A stretch of DNA of 64,000 nt. Source: an uncultured virus (IMG/VR IMGVR_UViG_3300010157_000055) (taxonomy: Duplodnaviria > Heunggongvirae > Uroviricota > Caudoviricetes). Position 1 is the stretch's first letter. Every line of letters starts with the position of its first letter. Shown here one piece after another: positions 27,268 to 64,000 of this stretch. The DNA lies in the IMG/VR virus record IMGVR_UViG_3300010157_000055; one strand, 5' to 3'. The notes below the pieces were generated by a model, which saw only the letters and a list, made by a program, of their open reading frames with translations, had not been told where the DNA came from and ran no database searches. The translations under genes were made by a program, and so were the position numbers.

Positions 27268-27545
27268 AAGTAATTCCACAAGTGGACTTTGACAAAGCAG
27301 TTCAAAAGATTTTATCAGTTGGACTGTCCAGGATTGCCGCAGAAAACATTGTGATTGTTTTTTGGAATGTGTGTGTAGAAAAAGATTTAAACTTTAAACA
27401 ATTTGTTGACAAAGCTACCAGCACAGGTAAAATAGATGTTGATCAAAACATATTGGATTATATCAATTTAACCTTGCCCAACACAGTTAGATATTACAAA
27501 GACAAACCTGCCAAATTGAGTACTGTAATTGCTCGTGAACTATAA
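27261..27545 (+). CDS. Hypothetical protein
   Basis: 94 aa, translationally coupled to its neighbours. Confidence 0.6.
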   Translation: MVKVIPQVDFDKAVQKILSVGLSRIAAENIVIVFWNVCVEKDLNFKQFVDKATSTGKIDVDQNILDYINLTLPNTVRYYKDKPAKLSTVIAREL

Positions 27546-27994
27546 TGGCCAACAACTACTCACAAGGGTTCTTTACTCCAACGCACCCGGAGAAATATGT
27601 AGGTAAAGGCACTCCTAAATACCGCAGTGGTTGGGAACTGACATTCATGCGTTTTTGTGACAACCATCCGGGTGTAGTTAATTGGGCAAGTGAAAATGTA
27701 CGCATACCTTATCGCAATCCTTTCACAGGAAAAGACACATTCTATGTTCCAGACTTCTTTGTTGTGTATCAAAATGCCAATGGTAGACATGCTGAACTGG
27801 TTGAAATCAAACCCAAGTCACAAGCAGTGATGGAACTTGCCCGTAGCCAGCAAGAAAAAGCCGCTGTTGCACTCAACATGTGCAAATGGGCGGCCGCCAA
27901 AGCATGGTGCCAGCGTATGGGTGCCACATTCCGTATTCTAACAGAAGAAGACATTTTTAACAATGTAAATCCGACTCGGAAGAGACGCAAATAG
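27545..27994 (+). CDS. Head completion nuclease (T4 gp4-like, TnsA-type fold)
   Basis: P.HPEKY.G, YRSGWE..FM.FCD, WASE...IPY, YVPDF, EIKP, KW.AA and F.ILTE. Confidence 0.88.
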   Translation: MANNYSQGFFTPTHPEKYVGKGTPKYRSGWELTFMRFCDNHPGVVNWASENVRIPYRNPFTGKDTFYVPDFFVVYQNANGRHAELVEIKPKSQAVMELARSQQEKAAVALNMCKWAAAKAWCQRMGATFRILTEEDIFNNVNPTRKRRK

Positions 27995-60227: not shown

Positions 60228-60482
60228 ATGACAGCCGTACACAGATTAGGAGATCCCAATGAGGATAACGGTATAATTACAAGTATCCCTCAGGGAACTG
60301 TCTTTGCAAACGAACTCTTAATCAGTATTGATGGCAGTGATGTTGAAAATGAACCAAATACAGCCAACGGTAGCCCTACTGTTTTTATTGGTGGCATCCC
60401 AGTAAACCGACAGGGTGACGAAGATGAAAGCGGTAGCAGGCGAGCTGAGGGCAGTGGAAATGTGTTTGTAGGACCCGACTAA
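60228..60482 (+). CDS. PAAR-like spike tip protein (gp5.4-like)
   Basis: AVHRLGD, TVFAN, GSPTVFIGGIPVNRQGD and EGSGNVFVG. Confidence 0.8.
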   Translation: MTAVHRLGDPNEDNGIITSIPQGTVFANELLISIDGSDVENEPNTANGSPTVFIGGIPVNRQGDEDESGSRRAEGSGNVFVGPD

Positions 60483-61212: not shown

Positions 61213-63039
61213 ATGGCAGACATTCCAGTTATACCCGGCGTTTCAGTTACCCCAATGGGGATACTCAATAGACCAATCAAAGACATCATTTGTGCTATCC
61301 TTTTTGGTGGCATCAATAACATGCTCAAAGGAAATTTACTTTGTGTAAATTTAGACTTGGAAAAATTGTTAGATGAACCAATTGTTGCAGACATAAAAGC
61401 CGAGTTGACAGATCTAAAGAATGAACTCAAGGCCATGGAAGAAGCGTCTGGTATCAAAGATGTGCTTGGCCGAGTCAATCAGGGCATCGCTGAAGTTCAA
61501 AATCTACTGGCACTGGATGGCTTATGTAAAATTCCACTGAAGTGTCCTCCGATACCCGACATCCTGAACATGACCATTGACGCAGAGTTTGCCACTGCCA
61601 ATGCAATTTTGGATGATATTGGTAGATTAGAAAAACCAAAATTATGTATCAATGGTGCTGGTGGTCTCAATACTGGTTCATACAATCCCAGTAGCATCTT
61701 GGGTAGAATACAAAGCAACATTACCAGACTGGGAACTATTCCTGGTCATGAATTAGACATATTAAAAAGACAATTGACACGAGTGACTGCTGGACTAAAG
61801 GCCAGTCTCAATAGACAGTTGTTTCCAGATTTCAGACACAAGACAGATTTGACAACAGGCAGGCCATATGCTAAAGGTGGTGCTGGTGTAATACTGGCCA
61901 GTGCCGCTGAACAGACCAAACTGAAGGCCAAGATTGCCGCTGACTCAGCATCGCCTGCAGGCCTACTGGCATGGCAACAGGTAGCAAACATGCCTGGAGC
62001 ATCTGCCGCGGATATTCAAGCATCATATCCGCCAGGTGACGCCAGTCTAAAAGATGCAGTCAACATAGCACAGACTCTGGTAGGTGGAATGAAAAAGACT
62101 GCCAGTTATCCTTCCACAGCCAATGGAATTATAAATGCAAACATGTGGCCCGGTGTGTTGGGTCCAGACATATATGCTATGGCAGTACAGGCAATGAGTC
62201 CACAGGACCCGCTATTTGTACAACAAGATCCACTGTATGATTATTGCGGTAAGTTCATTGGATACAATGAAACAGTTATAACCGGCGACTCTGCATACAA
62301 AGGTGGCGACCCAAAGAAAGATGCTGTATTGAATCCACCCAAAACAAACTTTGAATTCAATTGGATCGCAGATAGACAATGTTGGGCAGTCACTGGCGTA
62401 CAAAGCGAGCAAGTGGTAAATGGAAGAAAGGACACTTATCTAGATGCAAATCCAGAAATTGAATTGCATCGAGGGTATAGTCATATTCTAAGTGTGCCAA
62501 GTGCTGACATCAGTGGATTCGTTATGAGTGGCGACTATCCAACAGCAACTAGTACGGCTCCAGAATTTTTTATATGTCGAGTTGGAAACGATCTAAGGCC
62601 ACTGATTGCCAATGGCGAAATTGTCAAGTTCAACATGGGACTAAGCAGACTTGAGACATCAGAAGTATTGGACAATGCCAATGGTTGGCTACCAAGTGAA
62701 ACAGAACATGCGGGTATTGATGGTCCAGAAGGATACAATCGTAGATTAGAAAACCCAATGGGTACCACATTGTATTTTTCAGTCGAACAACGACAATACT
62801 CGGGTACTGTTCCTCCGCTGTACCCAAGCAAGGACATTTGGTGGTATAATCCAACCACTCTTATAACACAACAGTGGATACCAGATGGCGAGGCCAGTGG
62901 TCAATGGGTTGTAGTATCTGATCAGGATAGAAACAATCATTGGTATGGATCAAGTCCTTTGCAGAGCGATATAAGTGCAAACTATCTGGCCTACAGTAAT
63001 CGAAATGGTTCAGTTTTTGGCCTATTAAAATTAATTTGA
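61213..63039 (+). CDS. Hypothetical late (baseplate-associated?) protein
   Basis: 608 aa; TAAGTA 7 nt before the ATG; follows PAAR and the peptidase. Confidence 0.65.
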   Translation: MADIPVIPGVSVTPMGILNRPIKDIICAILFGGINNMLKGNLLCVNLDLEKLLDEPIVADIKAELTDLKNELKAMEEASGIKDVLGRVNQGIAEVQNLLALDGLCKIPLKCPPIPDILNMTIDAEFATANAILDDIGRLEKPKLCINGAGGLNTGSYNPSSILGRIQSNITRLGTIPGHELDILKRQLTRVTAGLKASLNRQLFPDFRHKTDLTTGRPYAKGGAGVILASAAEQTKLKAKIAADSASPAGLLAWQQVANMPGASAADIQASYPPGDASLKDAVNIAQTLVGGMKKTASYPSTANGIINANMWPGVLGPDIYAMAVQAMSPQDPLFVQQDPLYDYCGKFIGYNETVITGDSAYKGGDPKKDAVLNPPKTNFEFNWIADRQCWAVTGVQSEQVVNGRKDTYLDANPEIELHRGYSHILSVPSADISGFVMSGDYPTATSTAPEFFICRVGNDLRPLIANGEIVKFNMGLSRLETSEVLDNANGWLPSETEHAGIDGPEGYNRRLENPMGTTLYFSVEQRQYSGTVPPLYPSKDIWWYNPTTLITQQWIPDGEASGQWVVVSDQDRNNHWYGSSPLQSDISANYLAYSNRNGSVFGLLKLI

Positions 63040-63064
63040 CAAGCCGATCAAATAAGTATATACT
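63036..63064 (+). promoter_or_regulatory. Sigma70 promoter of the tmRNA gene, overlapping a TAAGTA late motif
   Basis: TTGACA-N17-TATACT; TAAGTA at 63053-63058. Confidence 0.85.
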
Positions 63065-63068
63065 GTAA

Positions 63069-63361
63069 GTTATTGCTGTATGAAGCAAAGAGAAAAGTGT
63101 TCTGGACGGGGGTGCGAATCCCCCCAGGTCCACCATAAGCACATAGTTGTCCTAGATGAAAGAAACCTCTTAGGGCTCTAGTGGGGATTGTGTGCTTTTG
63201 ATGGGCCTGACCTAGATTCGACAGGGCAACAAGTAACAGAGTGGACAGCACGACAGCGATAGTCGTAAAAACTAAACAAAAGTAACCGCAAACGACTCAC
63301 AGTTCGCATTAGCGGCCTAACAGCCACTTAGGGTAAGACATACCTCGTAACAGAAACTCAG
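63069..63361 (+). ncRNA. ssrA: Circularly permuted two-piece tmRNA (acceptor piece about 63069-63135, intervening segment 63136-63202, coding piece 63203 to about 63361)
   Basis: T-arm GGGGG-TGCGAAT-CCCCC plus CAGGTCC-A-CCA lies upstream of GGGCCTG-ACCTAGATTCGAC; 7-bp acceptor stem with G3:U70; tag ANDSQFALAA-stop at 63288-63320. Confidence 0.95.
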
Positions 63362-63386
63362 AAAAGGTTGCTTCGGCAACCTTTTT
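63362..63386 (+). terminator. Intrinsic terminator of the tmRNA gene
   Basis: AAAAGGTTGC-TTCG-GCAACCTTTTT. Confidence 0.9.
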
Positions 63387-63437
63387 CTTTATAAGTATTT
63401 TTATAATACGAACATTATCACACTAAAGAATATATCA

Positions 63438-63893
63438 ATGGCTGAAATATTAATTGCAACAGAACAAGATAAAAGCGGCACAGATGTGACAATTTATATG
63501 GCGCAAACAATTGCCGGAAGTCCGGTGTATCCATTTTATTTAAAAAATTATGCAGAATTAATGGATGCAGGTTTGGCTCAATCTCTGCTGTATTCATCAA
63601 ATCGAACCAAAGCAGTATATGCAACGATTGACAATAAGGTTGTTGGAAACATAGTTTATGAAATACAAGAAGATGTTTTCAAGTCCTGCTACTTGTTGTT
63701 TAGTGCAGTTGACGAAAATTTTAGACAGCGTGGAATTTTGAAATTGATGCACAACCACTTTGAAGTTATTATTAAAAAACAAGGTGCAAAAAAATTGTAC
63801 AGCTTTGTCCATGTAGATAATGCGCCCCGAATCGCCAGTTGTGTGGGCCTAGGTTTAGAAAAGCAATTTTATAAAATGTATAAAGTGTTGTAA
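63438..63893 (+). CDS. GNAT-family acetyltransferase
   Basis: KVVG.I, AVDENFRQRGI (motif A) and VHVDN.......GLG. Confidence 0.8.
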   Translation: MAEILIATEQDKSGTDVTIYMAQTIAGSPVYPFYLKNYAELMDAGLAQSLLYSSNRTKAVYATIDNKVVGNIVYEIQEDVFKSCYLLFSAVDENFRQRGILKLMHNHFEVIIKKQGAKKLYSFVHVDNAPRIASCVGLGLEKQFYKMYKVL

Positions 63894-63933
63894 AAATACA
63901 ACACTTGACCATTGTTTCCCTTTGTGCTATAAT
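63885..63933 (+). promoter_or_regulatory. Palindromic operator abutting a sigma70 promoter
   Basis: GTGTTGTA-AAAA-TACAACAC immediately followed by TTGACC-N17-TATAAT (extended -10). Confidence 0.85.
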
Positions 63934-63956
63934 ACTGTATGAAACAGGAGAATCAT

Positions 63957-64000
63957 ATGGAATTAGTAGAAAGAGCCAGAATTTTTGCAACAGCGGCCCA
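63957..64000 (+). CDS. Start of a probable HD-domain (SpoT/Mesh1-like) hydrolase, truncated by the window edge
   Basis: AGGAG RBS; MELVERARIFATAA(H) fits the A..FA..AH opening of that family; only about 15 codons are visible. Confidence 0.5.
   Translation, partial: MELVERARIFATAA

Follow-up and report, generated by a model that had tools for sequence, protein, structure and literature searches.

A circularly permuted, probably functional ssrA gene of betaproteobacterial design in an uncultured freshwater myophage

A locus near the end of a 64,000-nt stretch of DNA from an uncultured virus of the class Caudoviricetes (IMG/VR record IMGVR_UViG_3300010157_000055; the whole stretch is called the window here) raises the question of whether a phage carries its own ribosome-rescue RNA in two pieces and, if so, whether the rearrangement that splits it arose separately from those of bacteria. 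An earlier note, made from the letters alone, had read the locus as a complete transcription unit for a circularly permuted transfer-messenger RNA (tmRNA; gene ssrA), possibly from an independent permutation. Two gene detectors, covariation and conservation of the unit in other viruses bear out the first part of that reading. The sequence evidence supports an ssrA gene in circularly permuted order on phage DNA, equipped with a promoter and a terminator and giving rise to two pieces, one tRNA-like and one that codes for the tag. We consider it very probable that this is a functional permuted ssrA of betaproteobacterial design, carried by an uncultured freshwater phage that is a T4-type, probably jumbo, myophage.

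ARAGORN reported a single RNA gene in the 64 kb, a permuted tmRNA ("tmRNA*") at 63043-63411 with the tag ANDSQFALAA. The Rfam model beta_tmRNA (RF01850) matched at 136.5 bits (cut-off, 84; E value, 1.6e-41) over model positions 1-331 of 331, and tmRNA_permuted (RF04321) matched over its full length at 121.8 bits (cut-off, 47; E value, 2.9e-23), so that the earlier call was upheld by ARAGORN and by both Rfam models, each far above its cut-off. The search reports the best family per clan only, and the ranking of the beta model as best comes with no alpha or cyano score beside it. Bacterial members of RF01850 scored 88.8-111.9 bits (Herbaspirillum and Duganella genes) and 102.8-296 bits (a sample of the order to which these belong); 136.5 bits lies within this range and therefore among true members. 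In that sample, 4 of 151 genomes exceeded the RF01850 cut-off, and one unpublished genome (G429) fell below it. By the sequence and by ARAGORN alike, the acceptor 5' strand and the tag frame come after the T arm, the acceptor 3' strand and ACCA.

All elements of the gene lie on the plus strand. Transcription would start from a sigma-70-type promoter, TTGACA (63036-63041), 17 nt and TATACT (63059-63064), which matches the consensus at 11 of 12 positions and is the best site in 62000-64000. It aligns with the promoter-like 5' part of the beta_tmRNA model, and a promoter with at least 10 of 12 matches lies at the same distance in 19 of the 34 relatives having enough upstream DNA. The acceptor piece (63071-63135; about 65 nt) is delimited by the sequence, ARAGORN, Rfam and covariation, its 5' end being placed from the promoter. 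It holds one strand of an outer P2 helix (63074-63079; Rfam, covariation), one strand of helix P2a (TGTTCTG, 63098-63104; sequence, covariation), the T arm (GGGGG, 63108-63112; loop, 63113-63119; CCCCC, 63120-63124; sequence, Rfam), the acceptor 3' strand CAGGTCC (63125-63131), the discriminator A73 (63132) and CCA (63133-63135). A 67-nt segment that is presumably excised (63136-63202) separates it from the coding piece (63203-63388; about 185 nt), for which the evidence is the sequence, Rfam, covariation and the minimum-free-energy (MFE) fold, with the 3' end placed from the terminator.

The coding piece opens with the acceptor 5' strand GGGCCTG (63203-63209), which forms a 7-bp stem with 63125-63131 in which G63205:U63129 is the G3:U70 pair. 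There follow a D-loop analogue (63210-63221), the P2a strand CAGGGCA (63222-63228), which pairs with 63098-63104, the outer P2 strand (63245-63250), which pairs with 63074-63079, and a hairpin (63251-63265) that is 82% paired in the alignment described below. The tag frame called by ARAGORN, GCA...TAA, occupies 63288-63320. A helix around the stop codon (63311-63328), equivalent to helix 5, carries one C.A mismatch in the window and is followed by a small 5-bp hairpin (63331-63345; alignment, covariation) at the site of a pseudoknot in many relatives. The unit would end at an intrinsic terminator (63362-63390), a 10-bp stem (63362-63385) with a UUCG loop and a U run, found in the MFE fold and as the terminal helix of the Rfam alignment. 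This hairpin was not listed by a simple terminator scan, perhaps because some letters of the T run are able to join the stem. Promoter, tRNA-like half with its CCA, spacer, acceptor stem, pairing between the pieces, tag and terminator all agree with the earlier description. Of the piece sizes given there (about 65 and 160 nt), the 65 nt holds and the 160 nt does not.

Two arrangements around the unit are recorded here as separate observations. In two related viral loci (L024, 580-747; L107, 567-632), a permuted tmRNA that lacks its own promoter directly adjoins tRNA genes, which in L024 precede it, and it is therefore probably transcribed together with them. In the window, minus-strand open frames at 62861-63142 (93 aa) and 63048-63251 (67 aa) overlap the tmRNA gene; these most likely are non-genes that gene finders could miscall.

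In order to ask whether the fold is maintained in other viruses, relatives were collected from viral contigs with a degenerate pattern for the T arm and the acceptor 3' strand. This gave at least 120 loci; ARAGORN called a permuted tmRNA in 100 of the 120 viral-contig loci listed, and two loci of cultured phages also were examined. Of 36 genes passing the anchor patterns, L048 was left out because its spacer, of 4 nt, suggested that an anchor had been placed falsely; the other 35, all distinct viral genes, were aligned. The search pattern fixed the T arm, five of the seven letters of the acceptor 3' strand, and G1, G2 and G7, and the invariance of the T arm and of most of the acceptor 3' strand is therefore uninformative. 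When the 40 pairs that the window defines were scored, standard pairs filled 87.5% of cells, against 78.8 ± 0.6% in shuffles (0 of 500 reached the observed value) and 43-55% with slid partners. The acceptor stem was paired throughout the 35 sequences, with compensatory changes at two pairs (four pair types at one; CG in 18 and GC in 17 at the other), and G3:U70 was present in all 35. P2a was 96.3% paired. The outer P2 helix was 78.9% paired, with changes on both sides at all 6 pairs, and the stop-codon helix was paired in 70.1% of cells, with changes on both sides at 3 of 6 pairs.

Parts of the bacterial fold were not recovered. The middle helices of the Rfam beta model were not found in the window gene, nor was the second stem of its 3' pseudoknot, where the Rfam alignment flags nonstandard pairs. 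For the pseudoknot ahead of the tag (PK1), inspection of the 35-gene alignment by eye revealed no pairing consistent across subgroups between the loop at 63255-63261 and downstream sequence. One subgroup of six loci (L015, L049, L090, L113, L007 and L050) has about 22 extra nt after the pre-tag hairpin (alignment columns 372-400), with which these genes may form a full pseudoknot, a feature missing from the subgroup of the window.

The spacer behaves differently from the pieces on either side of it. Relatives 97-99% identical in both pieces differ in spacer length and sequence, and in the aligned viral set the spacer measures 25-215 nt. Its ends are nevertheless held together: in the aligned relatives the first bases after CCA pair with bases ending 4-5 nt ahead of G1. 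In the window this closing helix joins 63137-63143 to 63191-63197 on the plus strand and can be extended to 12 pairs, leaving the leader UUGAU (63198-63202) unpaired. Of the 35 viral sequences, 34 have a closing stem of 7-14 bp. The helix was 96.7% paired, slid controls reached 38-63%, and its covariation score was 0.619, compared with 0.211 ± 0.024 for shuffles (0 of 500 reached it). The leader UGAU was invariant and unpaired in the aligned set.

We considered whether the spacer carries cargo in the window and rejected this, as its 67 nt hold only a 5-codon frame (ATG at 63156). Separately, the spacer loop of the window contains a motif, YTAGATGAARGAAA (63150-63166), that recurs in one viral locus (L122) and in Pelagibacter phage Mosig, again within the spacer loop in the latter. 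Among the loci compared, none had it besides these three and two identical copies of the window; the 5-codon frame of the window begins with it, as does a longer one in L122.

The tag was examined next to the structure. Eight distinct DNA versions encode ANDSQFALAA across 28 rows, the window included, and the tag peptide is under selection, since it stays the same through synonymous DNA changes. Most ARAGORN tags listed for the viral relatives end in LAA, and in the alignment the relatives conserve both the surroundings of the resume codon and the helix around the stop codon.

The earlier note had suggested looking for smpB in the genome. No SmpB match was found among the window open reading frames (ORFs) scanned (34 against PHROGs, 40 against Pfam). 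Nor did the Pfam profile PF01668 match in any of 5 related viral records, of which three are 95-100% complete; as a control, the profile was positive in 10 of 14 known genomes. With no SmpB in these ORFs and records, the RNA presumably must use host SmpB. The result speaks for dependence on the host and still allows membership in the RNA family.

How such an RNA would work can be proposed from the bacterial family, from which all seven steps that follow are taken; the gene, its covariation-backed fold, selection on the tag, conservation in related phages and the SmpB negative were computed directly. Transcription by host RNA polymerase, starting at the sigma-70-type promoter and stopping at the terminator, would yield a single precursor. 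The precursor would fold with its acceptor stem stacked on the helix that closes the 67-nt spacer. Host tRNA-processing enzymes would then remove the spacer, with RNase P cleaving just ahead of G63203 and the other end being trimmed back to the CCA at 63135. The acceptor piece of about 65 nt and the coding piece of about 185 nt would be held together by the acceptor stem and the P2 helices. Host alanyl-tRNA synthetase (AlaRS) would charge the RNA by way of G3:U70 and A73, and host SmpB and EF-Tu would bring it to stalled ribosomes. Translation would resume at GCA 63288 and add ANDSQFALAA, marking the peptide for host proteases. Processing at 63135 and 63203, alanylation and tagging are thus expected by analogy, and the likely benefit to the phage would be ribosome rescue that is kept going through a long infection.

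Public sequencing runs, compared as assembled contigs, were searched for the two pieces. Contigs from three RNA libraries match both with 0 mismatches (for example, 63069-63118, 63089-63139 and 63223-63307), which indicates presence in RNA libraries and falls short of proof of transcription. These contigs leave the middle of the spacer uncovered (63154-63170 in all three libraries, up to 63187 in two) and also the protein-coding flanks (62950-63034 and 63392-63450); a DNA run covers both. We rejected the gaps in spacer coverage as a sign of processing or of expression level: the runs are contigs and relatives diverge exactly at the spacer, so holes and ends there prove nothing. Contig joints that skip 59 and 93 letters were considered as splices and also rejected, because the same form occurs in the DNA run and represents a relative with another spacer.

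Several observations weigh against a working two-piece RNA. The matches in RNA libraries are to assembled contigs, which cannot show RNA ends such as those expected at 63135 and 63203. No pseudoknot was confirmed in the window, where a plain hairpin precedes the tag and the 3' pseudoknot of relatives is reduced to the 5-bp hairpin. In the T arm, a 5-bp stem closes a loop of 7 nt, UGCGAAU, whose second letter is G, where tRNAs have U55; U stands there in all 20 bacterial rows (two of them repeats; their loops read UUC..., against UGC... in the window), and the G may carry a functional cost. The same G occurs in 98 of the 120 viral pattern matches listed, in Mosig and in the Rfam alpha_tmRNA consensus. 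Finally, with SmpB not found, function depends on compatibility with the host.

The altered T loop, the reduced pseudoknots and the missing SmpB also would suit a decoy, that is, a tRNA-like domain that soaks up host SmpB or blocks host trans-translation while the tag frame is a relic. A precedent exists in the tag-less tmRNA-like RNA of mycobacteriophage DS6A, which is reported to inhibit tmRNA (PMC4131195, PMC11915505). We nevertheless regard a decoy as very unlikely, because selection on the tag, seen in a peptide kept through eight synonymous DNA versions and in the LAA ending of most listed viral tags, argues against it, and the conserved resume-codon context and stop-codon helix would be needless for it. 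A different objection is that the spacer hairpin stays in place and the RNA, whether active or not, remains a single molecule. The two-piece ends do rest on analogy with bacteria, and one 422-nt RNA-library contig spans the acceptor piece, spacer and coding piece of a relative. That contig, however, has the same form in the DNA run and so may be DNA or precursor. Alanine is attached only to a free 3' CCA, so that at least the cut after 63135 is needed, and spacers that vary freely in length and sequence between conserved pieces are what is expected of discarded RNA. An unsplit RNA therefore seems to us extremely unlikely.

It also had to be asked whether the gene belongs to the phage at all, since ssrA is a frequent integration site of phages, which often contain pieces of it (PMC9004378), and the best Rfam family is bacterial; the locus could be an attachment-site remnant of a bacterial ssrA or a bacterial contig misjoined to phage DNA. 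PHROGs profiles of the window ORFs identify phage DNA, with matches to prohead protease, major head protein, tail sheath, tail tube, large terminase and tail fibers and, further, to a gp32-type single-stranded DNA-binding protein, a UvsX-like recombinase, RNA ligase, helicases, primase, NrdA/NrdB and endolysin. Pfam adds a fragment of a T4-type portal. The G+C content is even across the window (0.407-0.454), and the gene is complete, with both halves, promoter and terminator. It is flanked on one side by a 608-aa ORF that has no annotation and directly follows the endolysin gene, and on the other by a GNAT acetyltransferase gene. Four viral loci are related through the 608-aa ORF; in two of them (72% protein identity) the same tmRNA follows and then a 152-aa ORF, so that the gene order recurs, and in the other two the contig ends. 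Relatives are present in viral genomes rated complete by CheckV, with terminal repeats, of 150 kb and 124 kb. Bacterial genomes, on the other hand, offered little. BLAST of the window gene against 401 class-level and 401 order-level bacterial genomes gave matches mainly to a 32-46-nt tRNA-like core, and a back-translated ANDSQFALAA pattern was found in 0 of the 401 order-level genomes. A quick tree (44 rows, 295 columns, unrooted and with no alphaproteobacterial or cyanobacterial rows) placed the window within 12 viral contigs and one long-branched cultured phage, BUDD (Shimodaira-Hasegawa-like approximate likelihood ratio test [SH-aLRT], 96), apart from 7 bacterial rows. We regard a bacterial origin of this DNA as extremely unlikely and return to a functional permuted ssrA of the phage itself.

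As to the phage, the head protein encoded in the window is 62-66% identical to those of the jumbo myophages Sinorhizobium phage Phosso, Pseudomonas phage PA5oct and Cronobacter phage GAP32. By its sequence, the source is a T4-type myophage, probably jumbo. The public DNA runs with the three best matches to the window gene are labeled freshwater, and the run that matches best may stem from the source sample itself. The source is an uncultured freshwater virus.

Three further features of the window, all on the plus strand, were noted. A 149-aa ORF (27545-27994) between the tail-tube and terminase genes has a TnsA-like endonuclease N-terminal domain (Pfam PF08722; E value, 6.7e-20) and may be a homing-type nuclease. 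An 84-aa ORF (60228-60482) adjoining the M15 peptidase endolysin gene gave a weak PAAR-motif match (25.9 bits, just below the cut-off of 27). A second strong sigma-70-type promoter at 63905-63933, TTGACC-17-TATAAT with an upstream TG (11 of 12 matches), precedes the next ORF and suggests a run of host-polymerase (early) units here.

Is the permutation new? Bacterial beta-type genes (Herbaspirillum, Duganella and three more genomes of their order) fit the RF01850 model over its full length and have the same order of parts as the window gene. They share with it a spacer hairpin that begins 0-1 nt after CCA, an unpaired (C)UGA(U/A/C) leader, an AACAGAA motif in the 3' domain, the position of the promoter and a terminal hairpin. 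A 2.0-Mb genome of the same order (L152) has a compact form like that of the window, in which the last pseudoknot is followed at once by the terminator; its spacer measures 30 nt and ends in TTTTGAT, and its tag is ANDENFALAA. Differences were found in addition to that in the T loop. The bacterial spacers are 30-44 nt (35-44 nt, with CUGA(U/A/C) leaders, in Herbaspirillum and Duganella), in contrast to 67 nt in the window and up to 215 nt in phage relatives, and the pseudoknot stretch after the tag is about 150 nt in Herbaspirillum-type genes compared with about 65 nt in the window. An independent permutation, raised as a possibility in the earlier note, is not supported, because the bacterial beta-type genes have the same design of spacer helix and leader; the window gene also fits the beta model end to end and scores above genuine Herbaspirillum and Duganella genes. 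On this shared architecture, we assign the window gene to the beta-type (RF01850) design rather than to a new permutation.

Two-piece tmRNAs of phages also are not new, which removes the novelty hinted at earlier. Buchholz et al. (2022; PMC9004378) describe a two-piece ssrA in the OM43 phage Melnitz and, in 18,146 phage genomes, count 53 two-piece forms, of which 50 are aquatic. Seventy-nine bacteriophage sequences are listed in a paper on the tmRNA database (PMC11915505), and tmRNAs and SmpB were noted in huge phages by Al-Shayeb et al. (2020; PMC7162821). Table S1 of PMC9004378 lists as "Permuted" the Caulobacter phiCbK group, the cyanophages S-CAM1, S-CRM01 and S-SSM7, Pelagibacter phage HTVC008M, and Stenotrophomonas and Bordetella phages. 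Like the window, the phages of that table are large and mostly aquatic, with permuted tmRNA genes called by ARAGORN. In a collection of 50,697 phage records, BLAST matches to the window gene were to Mosig and Xanthomonas phage BUDD, and none of the other phages listed in that table matched. The kind of gene is therefore already known, and the window holds a well-supported, ordinary further example.

Melnitz and Mosig, as described in PMC9004378, resemble the window in the permuted order, in belonging to T4-type aquatic myophages, and in a gene that lies downstream of a host-type early promoter and outside any integrase context. Mosig (MT647606.1), in which the gene is annotated SsrA, received a permuted call from ARAGORN and is 82.8% identical to the window over 64 nt, from the T arm into the spacer. 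Both have G as the second T-loop base, and they share the trailer that follows CCA as well as the spacer-loop motif. However, Mosig is best matched by the alpha model (67.6 bits) and the window by the beta model (136.5 bits), and their tags are GEDNFALAA and ANDSQFALAA, respectively. PMC9004378 places a glutamine riboswitch beside the Melnitz and Mosig genes, whereas none reached the Rfam gathering score in the window, and the window phage, unlike Melnitz and Mosig, is closer to jumbo phages by its capsid protein. In the other matching phage, BUDD (L002; ON758385.1, 1480-1931), ARAGORN and RF04321 (77.5 bits) identify a permuted tmRNA with the tag VAANDADYSVARYA; the GenBank record has a hypothetical protein annotated over this locus and leaves the tmRNA gene unannotated.

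The permuted tmRNAs of bacteria usually are taken to represent three independent acquisitions. The window gene mixes traits of two of the families, as it fits the beta model yet has an alpha-like T-loop G and a spacer motif in common with Mosig. One account, which we put forward tentatively and judge unlikely, is that it belongs to a permuted-tmRNA lineage maintained by phages and passed among aquatic myophages rather than copied from their current hosts. The marks of such a lineage would be the G at T-loop position 2, a long and variable spacer with a conserved closing helix, and reduced pseudoknots.

The window adds one more well-documented large phage with its own ribosome-rescue RNA, which would rely on host SmpB, AlaRS and RNase P. 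Permuted tmRNA is common in viral contigs (at least 100 genes), and annotation pipelines should therefore expect it and avoid calling protein ORFs across the gene. The covarying closing helix and the invariant UGAU leader provide a concrete substrate model for in vitro processing. If the phage lineage is real, the mixed alpha and beta traits mean that phages could have carried the permuted gene between bacterial lineages usually thought to have acquired the permutation independently.

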